The notes below the pieces were generated by a model. The model searched no databases. It saw only the letters and a list, made by a program, of their open reading frames with translations, and had not been told where the DNA came from. 64,000 nucleotides of DNA, taken from positions 1 through 64,000 of the forward strand of contig JAPLVC010000003.1 of NCBI GenBank assembly GCA_026397315.1, in the 5' to 3' direction. The DNA is from Candidatus Aenigmatarchaeota archaeon (GTDB lineage: Archaea; Aenigmatarchaeota; Aenigmatarchaeia; QMZP01; QMZT01). Both the position numbers and the translations under genes were made by a program. Below, one piece after another: positions 771 through 57,965 of the stretch. How positions within the stretch are numbered: position 1 is the stretch's first letter; every line of letters begins with the position of its first letter.

Positions 771-1262
771 ATGCTTATGGCCAAGTCGAGAATTACGCCC
801 AGAAAAGAATTCATGGCAGCAGCGATAGAGAAAGCCATGCGCACGAAAATCAAGGGCGACTACGCGTTCGGCGCCGTCGTTGTCAAGGGCGACAAGATAG
901 TCTCGACTGGCGGCAACCACGTCAAACGCGATAGTGATCCCACGCGCCACGCCGAGATGGTGGCCATCCACAGGGCGTCCAAAATCCTCGCCACGAGGCA
1001 CCTCAAGGGATGCGTGCTCTACTCGACGCACGAGCCGTGCCCCATGTGCACGTCCGCCGCGATATGGGCAAAAATGGACGGCATCGTGTTCGGCGCGAAG
1101 ATAAAGGACATAGACGCGTACAGAAAAAAGAAAGGCAACGAGGAATTCGAATGGAGAACGATTTCCATCCCCTGCGCCGTCGTCGCGAAGCACGGCGACC
1201 CGAAAATCGCAGTCGTCGAAGGATTCATGCGCAGGGAATGCATGCAGCTCTTCCACAGCTAA
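771..1262 (+). CDS. nucleoside/nucleobase deaminase (TadA/guanine deaminase-like)
   Basis: HAE and PCPMC zinc motifs. Confidence 0.9.
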   Translation: MLMAKSRITPRKEFMAAAIEKAMRTKIKGDYAFGAVVVKGDKIVSTGGNHVKRDSDPTRHAEMVAIHRASKILATRHLKGCVLYSTHEPCPMCTSAAIWAKMDGIVFGAKIKDIDAYRKKKGNEEFEWRTISIPCAVVAKHGDPKIAVVEGFMRRECMQLFHS

Positions 1263-46909: not shown

Positions 46910-47069
46910 GCTGGGATGGCCGAGCTAGGTTCAAGGCGATGGACTCGAATGGATATCATGAGGCGAATGCCTGTGATTGCGCGACATCCATTGGGCTTCT
47001 GCCCGCGCAGGTTCAAAAGCGAAAGACGCAGATTGCATCTGCGTCCGCTTGAAACTCCTGCTCCCAGCG
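46910..47069 (+). tRNA. tRNA-Ser(CGA) with introns at 37/38 (46950-46985) and 59/60 (47018-47055)
   Basis: GCTGGGA/TCCCAGC acceptor, ATGGA-CT-CGA-A|A-TCCAT, long variable arm, GGTTCAAA|TCC after BHB-like intron removal. Confidence 0.9.
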
Positions 47070-47351: not shown

Positions 47352-47484
47352 GCCCCGGTAGTCTAGTGGCCAAGGATACCGGCCTTTCGGGTGCTTTTCG
47401 AAGTCTCGAAAGGTAAGAGCTCCGCAGCGAGCGATGACTTCACGAAGAAAGCCGGTGACCCGGGTTCAAATCCCGGCCGGGGCA
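47352..47484 (+). tRNA. tRNA-Glu(TTC) with 60-nt intron at 37/38 (47390-47449)
   Basis: CCGGC-CT-TTC-G|A-GCCGG; BHB CTTT/GAAG with bulges CG|G and AA|A. Confidence 0.92.
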
Positions 47485-48546: not shown

Positions 48547-48586
48547 GCAAAAAATGGCGCCATATAAAAAATCACTCGAAACAATC

Positions 48587-48743
48587 GCGGGGGTACCCAA
48601 GCGGTCAAAGGGGCTAGAATACCTAAGTTCGCTTCGACTGGTATGGCCAAGTTTAGGTATGGCTAAGTTCAGGCATTGGCTGCAAGGCCGTTGAAATGCC
48701 TAGTGCTTTAGTAGCTTCCAGGGTTCGAATCCCTGCTCCCGCA
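48587..48743 (+). tRNA. tRNA-Leu with introns at 30/31 and 37/38 and two alternative anticodon mini-exons (TAG 48651-48657, CAG 48667-48673)
   Basis: GCGGGGG/CTCCCGC acceptor, CTAG|G-TT(TAG or CAG)G|G-CCTAG, long variable arm, GGTTCGAATCC. Confidence 0.9.
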
Positions 48744-48807
48744 TAACTTTTTCTTTTGTTGTCCGGTCTTTTCCAGATTTATTAATAAACCGGGACATAA
48801 TCTAAAT

Positions 48808-57893: not shown

Positions 57894-57965
57894 TGCGGCA
57901 GGCGGGAATCGAACCCGCATCACCCAGTTGGGAACACCGGTGGGTTGCCGTTACCCCACTGCCGC
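57894..57965 (-). tRNA. tRNA-Gly-like gene with aberrant anticodon loop (GT-TCC-CA)
   Basis: GCGGCAG/CTGCCGC-A acceptor, GGGT/ACCC D stem, GCGGG-TTCGATT-CCCGC T arm; G32 and C37 non-canonical. Confidence 0.75.

Follow-up and report, generated by a model that had tools for sequence, protein, structure and literature searches.

A tRNA-Leu gene of Aenigmatarchaeota with two mutually exclusive anticodon exons, a probable source of both tRNA-Leu(UAG) and tRNA-Leu(CAG) by alternative cis-splicing

In this work, we describe a tRNA-Leu gene of an Aenigmatarchaeota archaeon whose pieces all lie contiguously within 157 nt (positions 48587-48743 of the window, i.e., of the whole 64,000-nt stretch of DNA analysed) and which parses into two complete leucine tRNAs with different anticodons. 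The window represents contig C5 of a 1.05-Mb genome that is 91% complete. Judging from the sequence and its conservation in relatives, it is likely that this one gene provides both tRNA-Leu(UAG) and tRNA-Leu(CAG) by alternative cis-splicing, and that the two routes are both functional.

Gene Layout and the Two Splice Products

The gene begins with a shared 5′ exon (48587..48617, plus strand) comprising tRNA positions 1-30, where the GGCT at positions 25-28 represents the 5′ strand for either of the alternative BHB helices at 30/31. It is followed by a 33-nt intron (48618..48650, plus strand), a 7-nt exon corresponding to positions 31-37 with the anticodon UAG (the UAG cassette, 48651..48657, plus strand), a 9-nt spacer that bears the second 3′ splice site and acts as a switch element in the model below (48658..48666, plus strand), a second 7-nt exon for the same positions 31-37 with the anticodon CAG (the CAG cassette, 48667..48673, plus strand), a 24-nt intron (48674..48697, plus strand) and, finally, the shared 3′ exon (48698..48743, plus strand), which extends from position 38 to the discriminator A73, has a long variable arm and does not encode CCA. 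A 16-nt tandem repeat (copies at 48640-55 and 48656-71) runs through the region of the cassettes. On the UAG route, the 30/31 intron is the 33-nt one, and the 37/38 intron comprises 40 nt (48658-48697, plus strand); on the CAG route, the 30/31 intron comprises 49 nt (48618-48666, plus strand), and the 37/38 intron is the 24-nt one. The spacer is thus either the start of the 37/38 intron (UAG route) or the end of the 30/31 intron (CAG route). Two other elements are shared in the same manner: the 5′ strand of the 33-nt intron may find its partner in the 3′ end of the same intron (UAG route) or in the UAG cassette plus the spacer (CAG route), and the 3′ splice site closing the intron 48674..48697 has a helix strand, TGAA, that can pair with either cassette.

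The 3′ exon was not found a second time in the genome. A TATA-like element about 25 nt upstream of the gene (48560..48570, plus strand) and a T-rich run after it (48748-48758) can be read from the sequence, and the gene presumably has a single promoter and a single transcript.

To enumerate the splice products, we used a program that removes any intron bounded by a BHB motif and scores the resulting cloverleaf, the expected answer not being supplied. The results clearly showed that the two top-ranked two-intron products tie, with a cloverleaf score of 73.5 each: Leu(UAG), obtained by the removal of 48618-50 and 48658-97, and Leu(CAG), obtained by the removal of 48618-66 and 48674-97. On both routes, the introns are located at 30/31 and 37/38, and the products, 84 nt each, differ solely in base 34. 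ARAGORN recognized Leu(tag) and Leu(cag) in the two spliced products, of which the latter is identical to an intronless Leu(CAG) gene of a relative at 74 of 84 positions. In each of the four BHB motifs the central helix has 4/4 pairs, some of them G-U, while the intron helices comprise 5 and 6 bp on the UAG route and at least 8 and 2 bp on the CAG route. The coordinates, the repeat and the BHB motifs given in a preliminary description of this DNA were all found to be exact, and its claims that each cassette has a complete BHB pair and that both routes end in the same leucine cloverleaf, with a difference at position 34 only, were confirmed by the two products.

A third path exists on paper, where the first intron is removed and then a 16-nt intron is excised at the same 30/31 site, again leading to the CAG tRNA. 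When the 80 intervening bases were resampled, two splice-competent Leu cassettes appeared in only 1 of 20000 trials. Among the tRNA genes of the genome parsed by the splicer with scores ≥62, no other gene yielded two well-formed, near-tied products that differ in the anticodon. ARAGORN run with introns wrongly calls it Thr, and since default ARAGORN and Rfam overlook it altogether, such genes may explain part of the “missing tRNA” problem in DPANN genomes (PMC5829648).

Proposed Mechanism of Alternative Splicing

The genome encodes RtcB (G000 C2:60854-62122) and an EndA of the epsilon2 type (L062:1189-2376, minus strand; 395 aa, E 5e-104 to ARMAN-2 4FZ2, with the loop YK motif aligned); the ARMAN-2 epsilon2 EndA cuts both strict and relaxed non-canonical BHBs at non-canonical sites (PMC3239211). 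We propose that one pre-tRNA is processed by the epsilon2-type endonuclease and the RtcB ligase along two mutually exclusive cis routes. Two 3′ splice sites would be alternative partners of the exon-1 bases 25-28, just as both cassettes would be alternative partners of the one final 3′ splice site. The 9-nt spacer would couple these choices: on the UAG route it would pair downstream, and on the CAG route its partner would be the first intron (5′ strand), the UAG cassette thereby becoming buried. Cutting the 40-nt intron first would commit the precursor to UAG, and cutting the 49-nt intron first would commit it to CAG; if the 33-nt intron were cut first, the intermediate would resemble the natural “skipped cassette” layout described below and either outcome would be open to it. 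Cleavage at the four motifs, ligation of the 7-nt exon, and both mature tRNAs together with their ratio are what we infer for this precursor.

Constrained folding gave a modelled energy difference between the UAG and CAG routes of 0.0 kcal/mol for this gene and of −0.6 ± 2.4 kcal/mol over 30 genes (range among genes from −5.9 to +5.2). Folding of the whole precursor was uninformative (z −1.05), and neither BHB pair, i.e., neither route, was visible in the unconstrained minimum-energy fold of the naked precursor. Since the best fold of the naked precursor lacks both BHB pairs, the choice of the route is probably governed by the folding order or by enzyme binding. The preliminary description had proposed that alternative folding allows one cis gene to supply both tRNAs and had regarded this as a switch. 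The first part is supported by our data, but there is no sign of regulation, and a constant division of the precursor between the two folds suffices.

Spliced junctions were not found in two sequencing runs that barely contain the organism, a result that has no weight either way: at the locus, an unrelated Leu 5′ end came from the RNA run, and the unspliced gene of a relative came from the second one. The two spliced forms were not found in the JGI contigs.

Leucine tRNA Genes in Genomes Bearing the Dual Gene

We found 40 tRNA genes in the genome. The other Leu genes are those for UAA, CAA and AAG, and neither Leu(UAG) nor Leu(CAG) was found as a separate gene, be it in this genome or in the 58 others with two-cassette genes (0/59), an outcome that the preliminary description had named as support for its reading; in the same 59 genomes, the other Leu genes (UAA/CAA/NAG) were recovered in 110 of 177 cases, and within the family in 53 of 66. 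One Leu gene of G001 with an N anticodon region and a 3′ exon of the AAG type was left uncounted. When intact UAG or CAG arms were scanned for blindly, 115 of the 312 non-dual genomes gave a hit, and no dual genome gave one with a valid stem. Of the 27 genomes of the order that lack a dual gene, both separate genes are present in 19, only UAG in six (four at contig ends and two where other Leu genes were also missed) and neither in two.

Five tRNA genes (Pro UGG, Thr CGU, the usual-type Gly UCC, Trp and Arg GCG) are missing from the genome, probably because of assembly gaps, as in the congener G004 they are located in two clusters. In G004, assembled mostly as one 1.1-Mb contig, 12 of 12 other U34 tRNAs and 11 of 12 other C34 tRNAs have separate genes, and Leu UAG/CAG are represented by the dual gene only. 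The commonest Leu codon in the genome is CUG (33%), while CUA accounts for 5%.

Across the phylum, an intact UAG arm unaccompanied by an intact CAG arm was found in 52 cases vs. 35 for the reverse (p 0.09), and part of f3, f7, f28 and the genus g170 showed only UAG. Such a distribution suggests that CAG may be dispensable in some lineages. As UAG-only hits outnumber CAG-only ones and some lineages perhaps do not need CAG, the case for the use of both cassettes rests more on the conservation of cassettes and helices than on need.

As to the remaining codons of the CUN box, the family reads CUU/CUC by tRNA-Leu(AAG) rather than GAG (e.g., C3:50143-50282, minus strand, in this genome (G000), as well as L051, L084 and L112); within the order, some genomes have AAG and others GAG. 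Leu(AAG) in place of GAG has been reported for ARMAN-4/5 (PMC3239211). The window also encodes, at 771-1262 (plus strand), a 163-aa zinc deaminase, about equally near TadA and guanine deaminase and below the NCBIfam cut-off for TadA, which is a candidate for making I34 on Leu(AAG).

Conservation of the Cassettes and Intron Helices

A set of 21 family genes was gathered by homology and the 5′-end pattern, the anticodon not being used. This layout was found in 21 of the 23 genomes of the family; of the remaining two, the first has a different dual layout, and the second (77% complete) yielded none. In line with the expectation in the preliminary description that relatives of a working gene should retain both exons, the two cassettes are kept together with both sets of splice signals. 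The UAG and CAG cassettes each show a single variant, i.e., they are invariant in 21/21 family genes spanning 9 genera; the 9 nt directly after the CAG cassette show 17 variants in the same 21 genes, and a third, degenerate copy of the repeat, which lies in the same register, pairs with the same partner and makes up the first intron's 3′ strand, shows 11 variants, although the counts and p values here and elsewhere overstate independence since the family genes are related and the genomes are incomplete.

The intron helix specific to the CAG route, located right after the CAG cassette, was paired in 37 of 42 cells, with 7 pair types at its second pair, and none of 2000 column shuffles matched it. 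In the helix specific to the UAG route, column covariation was absent (1599/2000 shuffles), so its length was tested instead. The total was 90 bp over 20 distinct genes vs. 48.5 in controls where the CAG helix was held fixed and its loop was shuffled (0/3000), individual lengths reaching 10 bp in G008 and 6-7 bp in several short introns. Moreover, the second 3′ splice site of G369 is altered jointly with the exon-1 bases 25-28 (CGCA/TGCG), and a single spacer change in G006 has its counterpart on both routes. Opposite position 34, the shared last helix has G, a base compatible with both U and C, in 35 of the 52 dual genes vs. 9 of 30 single Leu(UAA) genes.

Some CAG-route elements are imperfect. 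The central 37/38 helix of this route has a C-A mismatch in 17 of 52 dual genes, and the standalone Leu(CAA) gene in G031 bears the same mismatch. The invariant U33 is replaced by C within the CAG cassette of the G229 dual gene (L223) and in the standalone Leu(AAG) of G346 (L399), due to decay, tolerance or an assembly error. Two other candidates for decay were rejected: A37, present in some CAG cassettes, is carried by standalone CAG genes too, and A32 in G040 and G230 can be removed on paper by a 32/33 splice via a palindromic CTAG helix (shown for G230).

These data bear on the possibility that the UAG route alone works, with U34 reading both CUA and CUG, and that the CAG cassette is a relic of a tandem-gene fusion. 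U34 is able to read CUG by wobble, some lineages of the phylum show just an intact UAG gene, and the C-A mismatches and C33 in G229 could be taken in the same sense. However, the CAG cassette would then be part of an intron loop where no pairing has to be preserved, and yet it is invariant in all 21 genes of 9 genera, the helix following it covaries, its 3′ splice site follows the exon-1 changes in G369, and no pairing explains the C at position 34. We consider the UAG-only explanation unlikely.

It is likewise improbable that both cuts occur but one of the products is a minor leak of little translational role, the motifs being maintained to avoid dead ends. The range of energy differences among genes (see above) would be compatible with such a leak, but dropping one cassette would be a simpler escape from dead ends, whereas 10 families with three layouts have retained both, the combination being UAG plus CAG in each case and never two alike.

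Quite improbable is the production of the CAG tRNA alone, by direct or recursive 30/31 splicing, with the UAG cassette serving as an intron stem and CUA being read by inosine-34 Leu(AAG). The replacement of Leu(GAG) by Leu(AAG) in the family, the TadA/GuaD-like deaminase encoded at 771-1262, the low share of CUA (just 5% of Leu codons), the pairing of the UAG cassette with the first intron on the CAG route, and the tandem introns known at one site in relatives would all agree with this explanation. Nevertheless, the helix used only on the UAG route is long and lineage-specific (see the lengths in G008 and in short introns above), the UAG cassette stays intact even when its pairing is weak or absent (G008, f37, D layouts), and dual genes are present in Leu(GAG) genomes that have no other CUA reader (G104, G228, G230, G251, G313, G338); in addition, the deaminase is as near to guanine deaminases as to TadA.

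Distribution of Dual Leu Genes in the Phylum

The scan covered 371 genomes of the phylum, with a follow-up, and the statements on lineages rest on family labels. Genes with two cassettes were found in 59 genomes of 10 families, in three layouts. Of the 52 parsed dual genes, 31 have mutually exclusive micro-exons, as in the gene studied here, in nine the UAG cassette is fused to exon 1 and is skipped as an intron, and in 12 the stretch from the D-loop to the anticodon is duplicated. The UAG cassette lies ahead of CAG in every dual gene, and a search with a degenerate pattern revealed no tRNA with two identical cassettes or with the reversed order. The alternative anticodon modules lead to synonymous Leu in the 59 dual genomes, with the exception of two variant CAG cassettes among the 52 parsed genes. 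In viral contigs, 12 pattern matches were obtained, all judged to be due to chance on reading.

The layout of our gene is also present in four further species of the genus, in one of them on a 1.1-Mb contig, as well as in a contig from an unrelated run. An assembly artefact (listed in the preliminary description as a refuting outcome) or a chance tandem duplication, for which the occurrence of a 16-nt tandem repeat within a metagenome assembly could speak, has a negligible probability, being refuted by the same layout in other species and altogether in 59 independent assemblies, including the 1.1-Mb contig, and in the unrelated run.

In the genus g26, dual and separate states are both present. 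Separate UAG and CAG genes are mostly neighbours on one strand, with UAG first in 12 of the 14 pairs mapped initially and CAG first in two further pairs, in G044 and G334. This pattern fits an exchange between a tandem pair and a fused gene, which might proceed in either direction. Taken together, the results make it fairly likely that we deal with prokaryotic alternative splicing in cis, where mutually exclusive exons give two working isoacceptors in at least 10 families and three layouts, and that this arrangement was exchanged more than once with a tandem UAG-CAG pair.

Comparison with Known Systems

The nearest known case to the dual Leu gene is the trans-spliced tri-split tRNA-Gly(UCC, GCC) of Caldivirga maquilingensis, where separate transcripts are joined in trans via leader sequences (Fujishima et al. 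2009, as summarised in PMC4390854). Both systems combine common 5′ and 3′ parts with alternative anticodon pieces to give synonymous isoacceptors, and both involve BHB motifs and EndA; in contrast to tRNA-Gly, a single gene contains all the Leu pieces in cis, and its two cassettes compete, each excluding the other. The separate loci joined in trans by complementary leaders that define split and tri-split tRNAs are not found for gene 48587-48743. The split tRNA-Glu(CUC/UUC) of Nanoarchaeum equitans is made of two halves encoded by separate genes and trans-spliced (PMC4390854). Just as our gene, it concerns a U34/C34 pair with a partly common coding sequence in a DPANN archaeon, but it has no micro-exon and no choice inside one precursor.

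Multiple-intron tRNA genes are described for Thermoproteales, ARMAN-2 and Asgard archaea (PMC4033280, PMC3239211, PMC11291895, bioRxiv 10.64898/2026.10.13.758758). The dual Leu gene resembles them in its very short exons, in its several BHB introns, which occupy canonical and non-canonical sites, in the broad-specificity EndA of the genome, and in giving a canonical cloverleaf upon intron removal; the difference is that they are described with one product per gene, whereas the Leu gene parses to two. A term search in these four sources revealed no gene with two alternative anticodon exons. More generally, we found no description of a cis two-anticodon tRNA gene in the searchable literature, though a mention in older primary papers is possible.

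A similar logic is used by the docking/selector system of Dscam, where one upstream strand pairs with either of the competing downstream strands and thereby selects one of the duplicated exons. In both cases competing strands decide which duplicated exon is used, but the Leu gene belongs to a prokaryote, has a 7-nt tRNA exon and would rely on a protein endonuclease and a ligase instead of a spliceosome.

If both RNAs are made, the one-gene-one-tRNA rule is broken in cis, and prokaryotes possess mutually exclusive exons that require no spliceosome; the ratio of the routes could then tune CUA/CUG decoding. A 157-nt substrate and a relative of a solved enzyme make the choice of EndA between competing motifs, as well as the ligation of a 7-nt exon, accessible to experiment. 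The gene would also provide a cis counterpart of, and a possible evolutionary step for, tri-split tRNAs.

Other tRNA Introns and Genes

In Leu(CAA) and Leu(UAA) genes (G000 C7:151825-151943 and C6:49501-49690; many relatives, including L047, L056 and L127), the introns contain a sequence antisense to their own anticodon. The antisense is followed by a D′/C′-like or K-turn motif, and on inspection by eye the fifth base before the box pairs with position 34. These introns are possible intron-encoded 2′-O-methylation guides, like the known tRNA-Trp intron. In gene 48587-48743, the first intron contains a stretch antisense to the UAG cassette, and inspection by eye revealed no box after it, i.e., no box C/D guide.

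The Leu genes L013, L015 and L024 (of G021, G012 and G009, respectively) have two introns arranged in series at one D-loop site; as no exon separates them, recursive splicing is implied. Furthermore, a family of inverted repeats of the AAGCCTTTT...AAAAGGCTT type recurs in many tRNA introns and intergenic sites of this genome and its relatives (e.g., G000 C7:47308-47428 and C6:145384-145507); it looks like a small mobile element supplying intron gain.

Within the window, default ARAGORN missed a tRNA-Ser(CGA) gene with two introns (46910-47069, plus strand) and a tRNA-Glu(UUC) gene with one intron (47352-47484, plus strand), which flank two Val genes. A tRNA-Gly(UCC)-like gene at 57894-57965 (minus strand) differs by its odd loop (G32, C37) from the usual Gly(UCC) gene of G004 and is possibly foreign or non-translational. 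Elsewhere in the genome, tRNA-Ile(UAU) is present (G000 C2:82939-83068) and no Ile CAU was found; a tRNA-Phe gene (G000 C3 ~149490-149620) has an apparent acceptor-stem intron at 3/4; and about 650 nt past Leu(CAA) there is a copied 3′ end of a Leu tRNA (G000 C7:152581-152606), which resembles the remnant of an integration site.
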